Below are positions 1,641 to 9,196 of a stretch of DNA of 25,991 nt, piece by piece. Position 1 is the first letter of the stretch. Every line of letters starts with the position of its first letter. Both the position numbers and the translations under genes were made by a program. The DNA is taken from IMG/VR virus record IMGVR_UViG_2913137851_000001; one strand, 5' to 3'. Below the pieces are notes generated by a model, which was given only the letters and a program-made list of their open reading frames with translations, did not search any database and was not told where the DNA came from. This DNA comes from a virus (Duplodnaviria; Heunggongvirae; Uroviricota; Caudoviricetes).

Positions 1641-4112
1641 TTAAGAATCAGCCTGACTCGGGATCAGTTTTTGCCAGATAACTGAAACGTATTTTGCCTG
1701 GTAACGGGCGTCATCAAGTGCATTATGGCGCTCACCTTCGAATGGAATAGCCGTTCTGGCATCGAAGTCTATGGCTTTCCCCAGCTCAACGATTGTGCGT
1801 ACATCGCGATCGTTGTAGTAACGCCACGGGCAGGGGATCCCCTGCCGTTCGTATGAACGGCGCAAAATCGTGTTGTCGAAGTTGGCTCCATTTCCCCAAA
1901 CCTGAACAAAAAATTCACCGGAGTTTTCGTCGATAAATTCTCGCAATTGTAACAGTGCATCATCTAACGGGATTTCATCGGTCATAATGGCAGATTGCGC
2001 TTCGCGTGATTGCTTAAGCCACCATTTAATGGTGTCCCGATCAATGACTCCGCCAGCAGTTTCCAGATCGATAGTCTTACTAAATTCCGGTCCCATATCT
2101 CCGGTTTGCGGATCGAAAAATATTGCACCTATTGAGATGATCGGGGCATCAGGATTTTTTCCCATGGTTTCAAGGTCGATCATTAGATGGTCACACGTCC
2201 TGCTGGTGGATGTGATTTCGTGATGACTGTTCACCTTAATTGGGTGATCTGCCGTCTCGCCAGTTTCATTATCGCTATTGTGATGCTGATTGCCGCCAGT
2301 GTTCTCCTTGTGTGGATGTTCAGCGCCTTCCATTTCCTCCGGATCATCTTCCTGAACTTCAACCTGATACTCTTCATCGAATGTTTCTTGGTATGTTGCG
2401 TCGCCCATCACCGCGCCACAATCAGGGCAGTTGCCGCCGCCGGTCTGACCGCAGGCGGTGCAGACTTTTTCCACTTCCTGTTGCGCTACTGGTTCAGGCT
2501 GTTTCGTTTCTGGCTCGTTTTGTAACGCATTTGGACTGTTTTGTTCCGCTTTTTGGTAGTTCCGTTCCGATTCATGCTGGTTCTGGTTCACAGAATCGCG
2601 GGTCTGGAGCCCCTTAACCCATTTCGGATCATTCGGGTCACTAATCCCTTCAACAAATTCACCACGTGATGCAGCAAGCAACTTATCGGCGTCAGGCTGG
2701 CTGATATTGGCTGCCTGCATAATTTTGTTTACTTCGTCAGCGGTAACTTTTATCGGCTCTGGTTGTTCTGAATCTTCAGCGGTATCTACATTTTGCGGTA
2801 AGCCCGTGTATGTGCCATTTTTTCGGGCAAAATATTCTTCTTTTGTGATTTCAGTGGCGCCAGCAGCCAGTGCCTTATCCAGACCAGAGAGTTTGTTTGC
2901 GCGACCGTATTTTTCTCCGTCCTTATCTGCGAAGAGGAAATAGAACGGCCCCTCACGCTCTACAGATGGTTCAGCTTCCGGCGCGGTTTCATTTTTTGGG
3001 ATATCAGATACCTCAGTTTCCACTGCATCAGTTTGTGTTTCTGATGACTGGAGAACATCAACAGTGCCCAGGTCTGTTTCTTCATTCTCAAACACGCCCT
3101 TTGTCGTCAGGTATTCGCAGATATATTTGTTCAGTGCTACGGGATCTTTGTGAATGTCGATCGGACGCTCACGGACAAGGCCAAAAATAGTTTGGCGGTC
3201 GTAGCGAAGGGCATCAGGCTGTTTGCGCATTGATGCCGAGATACGCTTCCAGTCTTCGCGGTCGTTGTCGATAACTTCTTTTTTTGCCCAGCGATGGATG
3301 CTGCCGTCAATGTTTCCGGCATCCACATCACTAGGCCAGAGAGCGTAGGCCAGTTCGTCATCCAGTGTTTTCCATGTCTGCTTGTATTCGCGATGAATGG
3401 CAGCAATGACCGGGCTGATTTTTCCTGTTGAATTTTCAGTGTACTGTTGATTGGCTCTGGCGCGGGCGAGATCAACAACAGACGTGTATTTTCCGGTTTC
3501 CTTGCGTTCACCTTCGCGACGTTTTTTCCAGATGCGCATCTCTGCCTGAATTTCGGGCCATTTAGCACCAGGAATACATTTATGCTTAACCCACCCAATG
3601 GCGTGCAACTTAAGCTCCGGATACATGGCGTTAACTTCTGGCATTTTCATCAACGCTTCAACGATATGTCCGTCGAATGTTGCCATGTCTTCCTGCAACA
3701 ATTCCTGTGCGCTAATAACCATATCAACGGTGATGTTTTCACATGTGTCGAACTTAACCATGACAGCGTTCTGTACTTCAGGGGCCAGCTTGTCAAAAGT
3801 GACGTTCATCGGATCGGATTCAGTCTCAACCGGGACAAAAGAAGCAGACTCCTCATCCCAGCGGTTTTCCTGCATATATTCAGCATCCCATGAATCGAGG
3901 GCAGGGCGGGGTATGCCAGGTTTATCCTCGCAGACAATAAATTTATAAGCGCAGTCCTGAGCAGCCGGATAATGTTCCAGGAATTGCCAGTGAAATTTTG
4001 CTCGAGCACGGCGTTCGTCGCCAGCTTCAATGGCTGTGGCTACAGCCACAGCGCCTTCTTCCCTTGTTGCCAGTTCGTCAGGAATAGCGGCGCAAATAAA
4101 GACTTTACTCAT
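1641..4112 (-). CDS. RecE-like prophage exonuclease with C-terminal DnaQ-like (DEDDh) 3'-5' exonuclease domain
   Basis: Long ORF; the preferred start is the ATG at 4112 (MSKVF...), preceded by GAGG, rather than the TTG at 4148 used in the ORF track. Middle region contains DKLLAASRGEFVEGISDPNDPKWVKGLQTRD, which I recall as a conserved block in Rac RecE. C-terminal ~190 aa show the DEDDh pattern (MIDLETMG ... H ... ALDDA). A Cys4 cluster (CTACGQTGGGNCPDCG) lies between them. Confidence 0.75.
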   Translation of the reverse strand: MSKVFICAAIPDELATREEGAVAVATAIEAGDERRARAKFHWQFLEHYPAAQDCAYKFIVCEDKPGIPRPALDSWDAEYMQENRWDEESASFVPVETESDPMNVTFDKLAPEVQNAVMVKFDTCENITVDMVISAQELLQEDMATFDGHIVEALMKMPEVNAMYPELKLHAIGWVKHKCIPGAKWPEIQAEMRIWKKRREGERKETGKYTSVVDLARARANQQYTENSTGKISPVIAAIHREYKQTWKTLDDELAYALWPSDVDAGNIDGSIHRWAKKEVIDNDREDWKRISASMRKQPDALRYDRQTIFGLVRERPIDIHKDPVALNKYICEYLTTKGVFENEETDLGTVDVLQSSETQTDAVETEVSDIPKNETAPEAEPSVEREGPFYFLFADKDGEKYGRANKLSGLDKALAAGATEITKEEYFARKNGTYTGLPQNVDTAEDSEQPEPIKVTADEVNKIMQAANISQPDADKLLAASRGEFVEGISDPNDPKWVKGLQTRDSVNQNQHESERNYQKAEQNSPNALQNEPETKQPEPVAQQEVEKVCTACGQTGGGNCPDCGAVMGDATYQETFDEEYQVEVQEDDPEEMEGAEHPHKENTGGNQHHNSDNETGETADHPIKVNSHHEITSTSRTCDHLMIDLETMGKNPDAPIISIGAIFFDPQTGDMGPEFSKTIDLETAGGVIDRDTIKWWLKQSREAQSAIMTDEIPLDDALLQLREFIDENSGEFFVQVWGNGANFDNTILRRSYERQGIPCPWRYYNDRDVRTIVELGKAIDFDARTAIPFEGERHNALDDARYQAKYVSVIWQKLIPSQADS

Positions 4113-4204
4113 TTGTTTTAACCTCATGACAGATTTAAGGATGAACAAATCCCTGCCATTGCTGGCATATAAGAATGAAACCGGATATTTATTACGGAAC
4201 TGTT

Positions 4205-4396: not shown

Positions 4397-4581
4397 TGTG
4401 CACATCCTTTTGGCATCAGACGTAAACGAGCCAGCATTGAAACAATGCATATTTTATTTAATAGCTCCCGTTCTTGTTTTCTCTTGTTAATGGCATCTTC
4501 AGTAAATACTGGGTTACTGATAGTGACACCAATTTCAAAACAACCTTCAGACGTATTAACGTTTGGTAATAACGTTTTCAT
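4393..4581 (-). CDS. dicB: DicB cell-division inhibitor
   Basis: 62 aa (MKTLLPNVNTSEGCFEIGVTISNPVFTEDAINKRKQERELLNKICIVSMLARLRLMPKGCAQ), matching recalled DicB. Lies downstream of DicF on the same strand. Confidence 0.88.
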   Translation of the reverse strand: MKTLLPNVNTSEGCFEIGVTISNPVFTEDAINKRKQERELLNKICIVSMLARLRLMPKGCAQ

Positions 4582-4755
4582 TATCGCGTCCTCAACAATG
4601 AATTTTGTGATGCAGTGCCTGGTGCCTCCAGGTGACGTTAACCAGTTAACAATTAACGCCGGATACAGAGAATCCACCCATAACACTGTTTTTGGTTTTA
4701 ACTGTTCCGCGTGCGCTCAGCCGCATTCACCACATCACAAAATTCACTTTAAAAA

Positions 4756-4808
4756 GGGCGGCAGAGCAGTCACGGAGTAAAACTGATACCGCCAAACGTC
4801 ACCAGAAA
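4756..4808 (-). ncRNA. dicF: DicF small regulatory RNA
   Basis: Reverse complement of 4756-4808 reads TTTCTGGTGACGTTTGGCGGTATCAGTTTTACTCCGTGACTGCTCTGCCGCCC, matching recalled 53-nt DicF. It ends in a GC-rich stem followed by TTTTT (the + strand AAAAA at 4751-4755). Sits between ydfC and dicB as in K-12. Confidence 0.85.
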
Positions 4809-5396: not shown

Positions 5397-5525
5397 TCAG
5401 CCGTTAGATTTTGCCGAACTGGAAAGCGCCTGTTTAAACTCACTGAAGCTGAGAGCTTCTTCGCCTTCGGCAAGGCCTTCGAAGTATTCTTCGTAAGCCT
5501 TTTCCATGATTGTGTCGAAATCCAT
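5397..5525 (-). CDS. ydfB: YdfB, small dicB-operon protein
   Basis: 42-aa ORF below the ORF-track size cut-off, translated by hand as MDFDTIMEKAYEEYFEGLAEGEEALSFSEFKQALSSSAKSNG. AGGTGAG SD upstream. Start is 1 nt beyond the ydfA stop. Confidence 0.7.
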   Translation of the reverse strand: MDFDTIMEKAYEEYFEGLAEGEEALSFSEFKQALSSSAKSNG

Positions 5526-5526
5526 A

Positions 5527-5682
5527 TCACTCACCTGAGTTTCTTTCCAGCCAGCGACGGGCACCATTTTCGGTTTTAAACGTTTTGCTTTTGGTATACG
5601 TCATTGCGGTGAACGTGCCGTCCTGGTTTGGAAACACGCCGTACACCAGAGATTCGTTGTTGCCAAGATCGATAGTATCCAT
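5527..5682 (-). CDS. ydfA: YdfA, first gene of the dicB operon
   Basis: 51 aa from the internal ATG (MDTIDLGNNESLVYGVFPNQDGTFTAMTYTKSKTFKTENGARRWLERNSGE). TGAGGT SD upstream. Confidence 0.7.
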   Translation of the reverse strand: MDTIDLGNNESLVYGVFPNQDGTFTAMTYTKSKTFKTENGARRWLERNSGE

Positions 5683-5848
5683 GCTGACCTCATTTCCCCT
5701 TAACGCTGGGGTAGCGGAACTGTTTGCTGAGAACACCGTGCGGTGTGTTGATGCAAACAAGATTAGCCATGACTAACATATCGGTCAAGTGATTTTGTAT
5801 GCTATAGCTAACATAATTGATGTGGTAAAAGATAACTCATTGATGATG

Positions 5849-6256
5849 TTATCTTTTATTTGTCCGCTGACGGGCTTTTAGTAATTCTTCAAAGAGTTTA
5901 TTGAAGTTTTTTACTCGAGCTCGCATTTCGGCGAGCTGGGTATCCTGTTCTGATTCTGGCAGTGCATTAAACAGCTCAAGGAGCTCTAGTTCTTTGGGGG
6001 ATAAGGCAACTGGCTTCTCAACAGGTGGTGTTGGTTGCTTGTCTTCATCGCCAAATAGAATCCATGTTGGTGAGCATTGCAATACTTTGCTGAGGGCAAA
6101 AAGGTTCTTCCCTGTAGGTTCACTATCACCCCGTTCCCATTGTGATACAGACACATGGGAGATTTTCAGGGCTTTAGCAAGAGACCTTTGGGTGTGTTTG
6201 AGGTTTTTCCGACGATACCTGATGCGTTCGCCGATAGTTAAATTTTTTGTTTCCAT
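5849..6256 (-). CDS. dicA: DicA, HTH (Xre/c2-like) repressor
   Basis: 135 aa (METKNLTIGERIRYRRKNLKHTQRSLAKALKISHVSVSQWERG...) with an HTH motif; matches recalled DicA. Divergent from dicC. Confidence 0.88.
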   Translation of the reverse strand: METKNLTIGERIRYRRKNLKHTQRSLAKALKISHVSVSQWERGDSEPTGKNLFALSKVLQCSPTWILFGDEDKQPTPPVEKPVALSPKELELLELFNALPESEQDTQLAEMRARVKNFNKLFEELLKARQRTNKR

Positions 6257-6307
6257 AGTTAGCTAATGCTAAATCGTATTGACTATGTTTTTGTTAACAT
6301 CTATCTT

Positions 6308-6323
6308 GTTAGTTATGACTAAC
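6308..6323. promoter_or_regulatory. Palindromic operator-like site in the dicA-dicC intergenic region
   Basis: GTTAGT-TATG-ACTAAC inverted repeat between the divergent dicA and dicC starts. A related site TTAGCCATGACTAA occurs at 5763-5776 upstream of ydfA. Confidence 0.5.
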
Positions 6324-6339
6324 AATAAAGGTGTTTTAA

Positions 6340-6570
6340 ATGCTTAAAACTGACGCTCTTTTGTATTTCGGTTCAAAAACAAAACTTGCACAAGCAGCAG
6401 GTATTCGTTTGGCTTCGCTTTATAGCTGGAAAGGGGATTTAGTTCCCGAAGGTCGCGCGATGCGTCTACAGGAGGCATCTGGCGGGGAGCTTCAGTATGA
6501 TCCCAAAGTTTATGATGAATATCGTAAGACGAAGCGGGCGGGGCGGTTGAACAATGAAAATCACTCCTGA
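6340..6570 (+). CDS. dicC: DicC, Cro-like regulator
   Basis: 76-aa ORF divergent from dicA (MLKTDALLYFGSKTKLAQAAGIRLASLYSWKGD...), consistent with recalled DicC. Confidence 0.8.
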   Translation: MLKTDALLYFGSKTKLAQAAGIRLASLYSWKGDLVPEGRAMRLQEASGGELQYDPKVYDEYRKTKRAGRLNNENHS

Positions 6571-7009
6571 ACAGGCTCGTGAGGCTCTGGATGCCTGGAT
6601 ATGTCGACCAGGAATGACACAGGAGCAGGCGACGATATTAATCACTGAAGCATTCTGGGCTTTGAAAGAGCGCCCGAACATCGATGTTCAGCGTGTCACA
6701 TATGAAGGTGGCGCGATTGATCAGCGAGCGCTTGGCGTTAATCGAGTGAAGATATTTGAACGCTGGAAGGCTATCGACACCAGGGATAAGCGTGAAAAGT
6801 TCACGGCGCTAGTGCCTGCAATTATGGAGGCTATCCGGATTAATGATTTCAGGTTGTATCGTGAAATTACTGACGGAAAAAGCATCACGTGCATGATCGC
6901 CGGGTTAAACAAAGAATATGGCGATGTGGTGGAGTCCGGACTGCTTTTTGCTGATCCTGCCGTAGTGGATCGTGAAACATTACTCATACCACGAAATAAA
7001 AGACGATGA
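6554..7009 (+). CDS. YdaT/YdfX-like (CII-like domain) protein
   Basis: 151-aa ORF overlapping the dicC 3' end by 17 nt. Occupies the position taken by ydaT after the cro-like gene in Rac-type immunity regions. Family assignment rests on weak recalled similarity. Confidence 0.5.
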   Translation: MKITPEQAREALDAWICRPGMTQEQATILITEAFWALKERPNIDVQRVTYEGGAIDQRALGVNRVKIFERWKAIDTRDKREKFTALVPAIMEAIRINDFRLYREITDGKSITCMIAGLNKEYGDVVESGLLFADPAVVDRETLLIPRNKRR

Positions 7010-8075: not shown

Positions 8076-8909
8076 TCAGTTAGTAACGTCGGAATCTTCA
8101 TTCTCAGAATGACCCTTTCTCCAGCCCGCTGCAAATTCAGACGGTGTCTGATAATTCAGCGTGGAGTGCGGGCGGCATTCGTTATAATCCTGCCGCCAGT
8201 CATTAATAATTTTCCTGGCATGAACGATATCGCTGAACCAGTGCTCATTCAAACATTCATCGCGAAATCGTCCGTTAAAGCTCTCAATAAATCCGTTCTG
8301 CGTTGGCTTGCCCGGCTGGATTAAGCGCAACTCAACACCATGCTCAAAGGCCCATTGATCCAGTGCACGGCAAGTGAACTCCGGCCCCTGGTCAGTTCTT
8401 ATCGTCGCCGGATAGCCTCGAAACAGTGCAATGCTGTCCAGAATACGCGTGACCTGAACGCCTGAAATCCCAAAGGCAACAGTGACCGTCAGGCATTCCT
8501 TTGTGAAATCATCGACGCAGGTAAGACACTTGATCCTGCGACCGGTGGAAAGTGCGTCCATGACGAAATCCATCGACCAGGTCAGATTGGGCGCCGCCGG
8601 ACGGAGCAGCGGCAGACGTTCTGTTGCCAGCCCTTTACGACGTCTTCTGCGTTTTACGCCCAGGCCACTGAGGTGATAAAGCCGGTACACGCGCTTATGA
8701 TTAACATGAAGCCCTTCACGGCGCAGCAACTGCCAAATACGACGGTAGCCAAAACGCCTGCGCTCCAGTGCCAGCTCAGTGATGCGCCCTGATAAATGCG
8801 CATCAGCAGCCGGACGGTGAGCCTCATAGCGGCAGGTCGACAGGGATAAACCTGTAAGCCTGCAGGCACGACGTTGCGACAGACCGGTCGCATCACACAT
8901 CAACATCAC
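8076..8909 (-). CDS. IS3-family transposase OrfB (DDE integrase core)
   Basis: 277-aa ORF with a DDE/rve-like region (D ... D ... E with K/R, e.g. [19 protein letters not shown]). In the -1 frame relative to orfA. Confidence 0.8.
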
Positions 8910-8932
8910 GGCTTCCCGCTTCTGGTCTGTCG

Positions 8933-9196
8933 TCAGTACTTTCGCCCAAGAGCCACCTGAAGCGCCTCTTTATCCAGCATGGCTTCGGCAAGCAGCTTCT
9001 TGAGTCTGGTGTTCTCTTCCTCAAGCGACTTCAGGCGCTTAACTTCAGGCACCTCCATACCGCCATACTTCTTACGCCAGGTGTAAAACGTGGCATCGGA
9101 AATGGCATGCTTGCGGCAGAGTTCACGGGCGGGTACCCCAGCTTCGGCTTCGCGGAGAATACTGATGATCTGTTCGTCGGAAAAACGCTTCTTCAT
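8933..9196 (-). CDS. IS3-family transposase OrfA (HTH)
   Basis: 87 aa, [46 protein letters not shown]..., the typical IS3/IS407-type OrfA with HTH and leucine zipper. Confidence 0.8.

Follow-up and report, generated by a model that had tools for sequence, protein, structure and literature searches.

Probable operators flanking dicA, the repressor gene of the Qin prophage immunity switch

Results and Discussion

The palindromic sites that flank dicA are, with a probability of about 0.9, the operators of the immunity switch of the Qin prophage, a P22-type CI/Cro module in which DicA acts as the reader. In the window, by which we mean the whole 25,991-bp stretch of DNA analysed, the motif TTAGY-N4-RCTAA has three exact matches (5763-5776, 6259-6272 and 6309-6322) against 0.13 expected, and the three fall around dicA in a span of no more than 560 bp; of 100 dinucleotide shuffles, none reached this number. 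The same three sites are present in K-12 MG1655. The half-site is not spread uniformly either: the density of GTTAG is 0.81 per kb over the window as a whole and 8.5 per kb in the segment 5750-6335, with the 26-kb window serving as the background for both motif and half-site frequencies. The palindromes at the dic locus are thus real, non-random and far beyond chance. When one mismatch is allowed, two more sites appear elsewhere in the window (10952 and 20835), giving five against 2.48 expected; 10 of the 100 shuffles reach five, and these two were dismissed as operators and attributed to chance.

A first-pass annotation had reported the palindrome at 6308-6323 and a related site at 5763-5776, and had proposed that DicA binds both and so ties the immunity switch to the dicB operon. 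These findings are correct, and they restate the established model of the dic locus, which dates from Bejar et al. 1988 (cited by Yun 2012 and Ragunathan et al. 2023) and in which DicA links the switch to the dicB operon. That annotation overlooked a third perfect site at 6259-6272 and a weaker site at 5798-5811. What is added here is the placement of the dicB promoter site relative to the -35, -10 and transcription start, the mapping of the published reporter fragment, and the covariation of sites across the repressor family. The only reason why E. coli K-12 needs DicA to live is that it keeps the dicB operon silent, a control whose physical basis lies in these operators; production of the cell-division inhibitors DicF and DicB hinges on the switch. 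The practical value is modest: a precise annotation of the dicB promoter operator, which was reported missing from RegulonDB (2020 Reg-Seq paper), and a testable assignment for the operator Oa.

The immunity region

Positions ~5400-6900 of the window represent the immunity region of the cryptic E. coli prophage Qin (Kim). Many E. coli chromosomes match a 1.4-kb query at 100% identity, and they annotate ydfC, ydfB, ydfA, dicA and dicC, together with a YdaT-family gene, at this locus; the earlier assignments of dicA, dicC and ydfA are correct. The leftward genes ydfA and dicA are separated by the leftward promoter dicBp, while dicC is transcribed rightward. The dicA gene (5849-6256, minus strand) encodes a 135-aa CI-like repressor with an HTH_3 domain, and dicC (6340-6570, plus strand) encodes a 76-aa Cro-like repressor of the P22_Cro family. 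The two genes are divergent with 83 bp between them, and their products make up the pair of CI-like and Cro-like HTH proteins that goes with P22-type immunity operators. Beyond dicBp, ydfA (5527-5682, minus strand; DUF1391, annotated ATG at 5682) is the first gene of the ydfABC-dicF-dicB operon, and dicF (4808-4756, minus strand; Rfam DicF, 76.7 bits) follows ydfA, ydfB and ydfC.

Pfam assigns only HTH-type domains to DicA, and the LexA/S24-type cleavage domain is absent from its 135 residues. The Ala-Gly cleavage bond is also absent, and DicA is relieved by the Rem antirepressor (Ragunathan et al. 2023). Because it lacks a self-cleavage domain and is relieved by Rem, DicA is C2-like at the DNA level only and falls short of full membership in the self-cleaving C2/CI/LexA family.

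Operators and promoters between dicA and dicC

The palindrome at 6308-6323 (GTTAGTTATGACTAAC, GTTAGT-TATG-ACTAAC) forms the core of Oc, an operator already described in the literature. The surrounding 20-bp inverted repeat at 6306-6325 (TTGTTAGTTATGACTAACAA), which occupies an OR1-equivalent position, is the reverse complement of the published Oc 20-mer, 5'-TTGTTAGTCATAACTAACAA. DicA has been shown to bind Oc in vivo, where it represses dicC and stimulates dicA, and Oc placed before an rpsL reporter confers dicA-dependent repression; furthermore, a dicA-dicC promoter fragment could be cloned at high copy only with point mutations clustered in Oc, and a single A to C change in one arm (GTTAG to GTGAG) abolishes binding (Yun 2012, PMC3441716). 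This change falls at window position 6310.

The dicC promoter, dicCp (6279-6307, plus strand), was found by a consensus promoter scan, and consists of a -35 TTGACT (6279-6284), a 17-nt spacer and a -10 TATCTT (6302-6307), collinear with the annotated PR of P22. The annotated DicA site extends from -8 to +12 of dicCp; plasmid library variants mutated in this site were enriched, for which the authors propose a cost of DicA titration (2025-26 Reg-Seq preprint). Equating the annotated site with the Oc 20-mer, we infer that dicCp starts at about 6314. Operators on both sides of dicA overlap core promoter elements, since Oc follows the dicCp -10 and covers its +1, and the site at dicBp lies over the spacer and -10 of that promoter; the promoter positions used for this comparison were derived from consensus matches, from homology with P22 and from published primers.

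Two further sites occupy the region between Oc and dicA. The sequence at 6258-6273 (GTTAGCTAATGCTAAA), at an OR3-equivalent position, holds a perfect TTAGC-N4-GCTAA core (TTAGCTAATGCTAA, 6259-6272) beginning at a distance of 3 bp from the start codon of dicA, and its position suggests that it is the published Oa. The candidate for Om (6285-6300, ATGTTTTTGTTAACAT), at an OR2-equivalent position inside the dicCp spacer, is degenerate, with one recognisable half-site (GTTAAC), and probably corresponds to the published Om; relatives carry class-matching palindromes at the OR2-type offset of about 25. The region therefore presents repeated, two-fold symmetric sites of the size expected for an HTH dimer, of which Oc and Oa have perfect 5-N4-5 cores and the site at the OR2 position is degenerate. 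Om and Oa were named as operator-like sequences by Bejar et al. 1988, according to Yun 2012, and neither showed DicA binding in the in vivo assay of the latter study (data not shown there; PMC3441716).

The dicA promoter has been called 'not obvious' (Yun 2012, PMC3441716), and Reg-Seq found no RNAP site for dicA (2020 paper). Projection of the annotated P22 PRM through the P22 alignment predicts a promoter at 6260-6294 on the minus strand, with a -35 ACAAAA (6294-6289), a -10 TAGCAT (6271-6266) and an A at 6260 as +1. As predicted, this promoter would have Oa over its -10 and +1, in an OR3-like arrangement, and such a PRM-like layout may explain both the 'not obvious' promoter and the missing Reg-Seq site.

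These features of Oa bear on the question of whether the palindromes are mainly sites of the Cro-like DicC, or are shared between the two proteins. Across 83 loci with the same recognition helix, only one of the ten arm columns of Oa varies, and this in two loci; the site is nearly invariant, yet it is reported as unbound by DicA and overlaps the predicted dicA -10 and +1. The gene for DicC, a member of the P22_Cro family, runs divergently from dicA. CI and Cro of lambdoid switches act on common operators. Such sharing has also been stated for DicA and DicC, and DicC overexpression repressed dicA, while dicC was needed for stable dicBp switching (Ragunathan et al. 2023). Against a predominant role for DicC, deletion of dicC left basal dicBp activity unchanged, whereas deletion of dicA derepressed an ectopic dicBp-lacZ fusion 22-fold, with 100% ON colonies (Ragunathan et al. 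2023), and DicA binding to Oc is directly supported (Yun 2012, PMC3441716). [quoted passage not shown]

The dicB promoter and its operators

The dicB promoter, dicBp (5752-5788, minus strand; minus-strand sequence CACTTGACCGATATGTTAGTCATGGCTAATCTTGTTTGCATCAAC), has a -35 TTGACC (5788-5783), a 17-nt spacer and a -10 TAATCT (5765-5760), with +1 at about 5752-5754. The consensus scan that found dicCp missed this promoter because its -10 matches only 3/6 positions, and dicBp was placed by sequence reading, P22 homology and published primers. Three observations lead to the assigned start. The 40-nt homology of a published in-locus fusion primer ends at 5752; the published RNase III cut at +813/814, from which the 190-nt DicF gets its 5' end, fits a start near 5752-5757 when dicF is at 4808-4756; and the annotated P22 PL (TTGACC-17-TAAATT, with its start 7 nt past the -10) aligns with dicBp. 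The published 1,146-nt ydfABC-dicF transcript was also considered as an anchor; counted from the dicF 3' end, it gave no sensible start and was not used.

The related site that the first-pass annotation placed upstream of ydfA, where it expected the dicB-operon promoter, is indeed found at 5763-5776 (TTAGCCATGACTAA), covering the dicBp spacer and overlapping the -10. Read on the minus strand, this palindrome core (TTAGTCATGGCTAA, 5776-5763) fills the spacer at about -24 to -11 relative to +1, and it forms the centre of an OL1-equivalent operator at 5760-5779 (minus strand, ATGTTAGTCATGGCTAATCT). A weaker OL2-equivalent operator lies upstream at 5795-5814 (minus strand, ATGTTAGCTATAGCATACAA); its core at 5798-5811 (TATGCTATAGCTAA), 35 bp from 5763-5776, has two mismatches to the core motif and was also called by the palindrome search. 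Relatives carry a better site at the OL2-type offset, for example GTTAGTCATGGCAAAC in locus L002. The same half-sites recur at a PL-type promoter beyond the repressor gene, an arrangement that P22 and 32 distinct family loci also show.

Operator sequences like those of lambda PR and PL have been described in the dicA-dicC and dicA-dicBp intergenic regions, and DicA has been predicted to bind operators overlapping dicBp (Ragunathan et al. 2023). The DicA site for dicB was given as low-evidence in RegulonDB, with its location unknown (2020 Reg-Seq paper). The ectopic dicBp-lacZ fragment (primers O-PR241/O-PR242) maps to 5848->5736 of the window, a length of 113 bp, and DicA is required for its repression, as published experiments have shown. 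Within these 113 bp, only 5763-5776 and 5798-5811 match the motif at up to two mismatches.

A core match alone is no guarantee of DicA binding. The site at 5763-5776 might be incidental, having been inherited with a P22-like ancestral promoter, while DicA represses dicBp indirectly or via another site. The dicBp site has one TTAGC-type arm, as does Oa, for which DicA binding was reported to be absent, and a literature search covering ChIP-exo, DAP-seq, gSELEX, EMSA and footprint studies found no base-resolution DicA map at dicBp or at 5763-5776, with the operator papers of 1986 and 1988 outside its scope. This reading has to contend with the DicA-responsive fragment, which holds no candidates besides 5763-5776 and the weaker 5798-5811, and with two comparisons among relatives that are presented below. 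The position of the site, its sequence and its covariation instead argue that DicA probably contacts 5763-5776 itself.

The strongly conserved ydfA leader 3' of dicBp was also examined. As a candidate RNA element it gave no significant fold (z=0.13) and no Rfam match, and as a candidate nut site it bore no resemblance to the boxA/boxB of P22 nutL.

Covariation and conservation across DicA-family loci

DicA-like loci were gathered from E. coli genomes and phage records, from one genome per species (28 loci) and from viral contigs (80 loci). For 32 distinct loci, an unbiased, palindrome-first search, in which TTAG was not assumed, determined the combination of 5-mer half-site and spacer that yields near-palindromes in the 130 bp upstream of the repressor gene (PR side) as well as in the 260 bp beyond its end (PL side). 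P22 served as a positive control, and here this de novo procedure recovered TTAAG-N4-CTTAA inside the annotated OR and OL blocks. Among the 32 loci, shared palindromes occur at conserved offsets of about 1-2, 25 and 50 from the repressor ATG, and, on the PL side, of about 36-44 and 71-78 from the repressor stop codon.

The half-site follows the recognition helix of the repressor, and at least six half-site classes track helix classes. GTTAG(Y) is found with the helix SHVSVSQWE, TTAG(R) with A/SHVTISQWE, TTGAG with SG/DSSISLWE, TAAC..GTTA with SSVSVFKWE, CTTAA/CTTAG with SHVTIFKWE, and TTTCG..CGAAA with SYVSVYRWE. The site at the Oc position matches the PL region of its own locus with a mean of 2.09 arm mismatches, compared with 4.16 for the PL regions of other classes (Mann-Whitney p=4.6e-18, a value inflated by the relatedness of the loci). 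The match to the own PL region beats at least 98% of shuffles in 19 of the 32 loci; 8 of the 32 gave no clear match under the fixed geometry, the geometry being different in these loci. Two mosaic E. coli loci (L006 and L007) are particularly informative for the dicBp site: their ydfA leaders are nearly identical to that of the window, yet the sequence at the operator positions has switched to match the Oc-type site of their own locus. In heteroimmune relatives with such a leader, the sequence at the very position of 5763-5776 has changed to fit the locus's own Oc-type half-site. The covariation supports the view that one repressor would read both sides of dicA, and, together with the binding of DicA to Oc and the behaviour of the 113-bp reporter, it upholds the proposal that DicA serves both and that the immunity switch is tied to the dicB operon.

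Fine-scale conservation was assessed in the 83 loci of the same helix class, from which 28 distinct PR and 33 distinct PL sequences were used. Variable columns number 4 of 40 in the palindrome arms, 12 of 24 in the palindrome centres and 49 of 114 among the other intergenic columns. By Fisher's exact test, the arms differ from the other columns at p=9e-5 and from the centres at p=7e-4, values that overstate independence since the loci are related. In Oc and in the dicBp site, variation is confined to the central six positions and the arms are invariant; in strain SJ3, the Oc centre TTATGA is replaced by TCATGG, which is the centre of the dicBp site. Conserved arms around variable centres are what would be expected if a dimeric HTH protein made its contacts in the arms rather than in the centre. 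With the arms of 5763-5776 invariant across 83 loci and its half-site changing with the repressor in the mosaic loci, the reading of this site as an incidental relic of the ancestral promoter is very improbable.

Still less probable is that a host factor (the TetR-family YjdC/DicD, or H-NS/Cnu) is the principal reader of the palindromes in place of the prophage repressors: YjdC-FLAG ChIP-qPCR gave a published 2- to 12-fold enrichment at the dic locus, which its authors place on the dicC operator region, and CnuK9E with H-NS antagonises DicA at Oc (Yun 2012, PMC3441716), but the YjdC paper defines no motif or site, and a fixed host factor cannot explain half-sites that covary with the prophage repressor helix across hosts and phages.

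A model for the switch

In the model that we favour, with DicA as reader of both control regions, a DicA dimer would use its N-terminal helix-turn-helix to read the paired GTTAG(Y) arms of a ~16-20 bp inverted repeat, the central 4-6 bp of which would be free of sequence constraint. Bound at Oc (6306-6325), DicA covers -8 to +12 of dicCp and blocks dicC transcription, the binding and the repression having been shown by experiment. At dicBp, it very probably binds 5760-5779, where it would occupy the spacer and -10 and exclude RNA polymerase from the promoter of ydfABC-dicF-dicB, and the weaker site at 5795-5814, just upstream of the dicBp -35, would in all likelihood act as a helper. Because one small pool of DicA would serve both promoters, its loss, which could be brought about by titration, the Rem antirepressor, temperature or Cnu/H-NS, would activate dicC at the same time as the division inhibitors DicF and DicB.

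The role of DicC is held with moderate confidence: it would share operators with DicA, and Oa (6258-6273) would be an autoregulatory site of the OR3 type, lying on the -10 and +1 predicted for dicA and perhaps preferred by DicC. If true, a DicC preference for Oa would explain how DicC shuts off dicA. Likewise, the six or more helix/half-site pairs could, if the correspondence is true, be a recognition code for short, non-cleavable P22-like repressors. As a joint proposition, a dicBp operator made up of 5760-5779 with its helper at 5795-5814, a DicC-preferred OR3-type Oa on the predicted dicA promoter, and a helix/half-site recognition code remain tentative, and we would put their holding together at somewhat below an even chance.

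Comparison with known systems

The sites described here are the same object as the Qin operators Oc, Om and Oa and the dicBp operators of the literature (Bejar, Bouche & Bouche 1988, Mol Gen Genet 212:11; Yun et al. 2012, PLoS One 7:e45236; Ragunathan et al. 2023, J Bacteriol 205:e00129-23), and nothing essential differs between them.

A close relative outside Qin is immC of P22, where the C2 repressor and Cro go with operators OR1-3 and OL1-3. The DNA-binding domain of C2 matches DicA residues 7-71 at E=8e-20 (solved structures 1ADR, 2R1J and 3JXB), with the match confined to this part, and it shares 58.7% identity with the DicA N-terminal domain by tblastn. In alignment, the P22 OR and OL are collinear with both Qin control regions, which puts Oa at OR3, 6285-6300 at OR2, Oc at OR1 past the -10, and the dicBp site at OL1. 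The two systems have in common inverted-repeat cores of the 5-N4-5 type, sites at the OR3, OR2 and OR1 positions at the same offsets from the repressor ATG, a -35 TTGACT, and a PL of the form TTGACC-17-TAA(T/A)(C/T)T with an operator in its spacer. They differ in the half-site, which is TTAAG in P22 and TTAGY in Qin, and in the repressor, DicA having 135 aa, no S24-type self-cleavage domain, and relief by Rem rather than RecA. Furthermore, unlike P22, Qin has a degenerate site at the OR2 position, Om and Oa are reported as unbound by DicA, and ydfA heads a leftward operon in which no nut site can be recognised.

With lambda CI/Cro, the switch shares divergent repressor and cro genes, more than one operator copy at each of the two promoters beside the repressor gene, bistability, and autoactivation by the repressor. 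The operators, in contrast, have no sequence relationship, and cooperative OR1-OR2 binding and OL-OR looping are lambda features not known for DicA. In the mode of induction only, the Gifsy repressors GfoR/GfhR, with their LexA-controlled antirepressors, offer a further parallel, in that a short, non-cleavable repressor is likewise inactivated by an antirepressor (Ragunathan et al. 2023).

The ydfA leader and the end of dicA

The 5' leader of ydfA (5683-5752, minus strand, with equivalents in loci L002-L008; CATCAAcACACCGCACGGTGTTCTCAGCAAACAGTTCCGCTACCCCaGCGTTAAGGGGAAATGAGG) is near-identical among heteroimmune E. coli loci, despite their differing operators and repressor recognition helices, and this combination therefore places a mosaic boundary right at the start of dicBp, the dicB-operon promoter. 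The predicted RNA fold of the leader was not significant (z = 0.13), an Rfam search with it returned no matches, and no likeness was found between it and nutL of phage P22.

The stop codon of dicA is spanned by an 11-bp perfect inverted repeat (arms at 5826-5836 and 5848-5858, with a gap of 11 nt; TAAAAGATAAC / GTTATCTTTTA), which ends, in the dicA sense, in a T-run. Relatives of 93% identity (e.g., locus L002) carry a longer stem, owing to three changes in the loop (GATAACGCA...TGCGTTATC). The repeat may represent a weak dicA terminator, shielding dicBp from read-through.

At the dicC promoter, the DicA operator Oc is itself enclosed by a longer, imperfect palindrome (6296-6335; 18-nt arms with 83% complementarity, AACATCTATCTTGTTAGT / ACTAACAATAAAGGTGTT), which extends into the -10 element of that promoter and the ribosome-binding region of dicC.

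Flanking genes

A stretch directly downstream of dicF, running towards dicB (4549-4758, minus strand), matches the Rfam sRNA family STnc100 with a score below threshold (34.4 bits, where the gathering score is 47; E = 4e-5). Beyond dicB and ydfD, on their downstream side, lies an intact ORF of 835 aa (1641-4148, minus strand), the C-terminal part of which is an Rv2179c-like 3'-5' exonuclease domain. Related E. coli genomes annotate the corresponding gene as 'exonuclease'.

Approximately 1.5 kb rightward of dicC, an IS3-family-type transposase has inserted (8076-9196, minus strand), composed of an 87-aa HTH_Tnp_1 ORF and a 277-aa rve integrase-core ORF. The YdaT-family ORF adjoining dicC comprises 151 aa, compared to 173 aa for the annotated L001 homologue. 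Together, the insertion and the shorter ORF suggest a disruption of the prophage on the side of its replication genes.

DicA modules in records of unrelated hosts

Enterobacterial-type DicA modules, at 57-99% aa identity and accompanied by matching operators, were also encountered in the record of Stenotrophomonas phage vB_SmeS_BUCT709 (L005) and in MAGs labelled Collinsella, Bacillota, and Veillonella (L010, L024, and L025). The most likely explanation of their occurrence under such unrelated host labels is contamination or mis-binning, and not a genuine host range.
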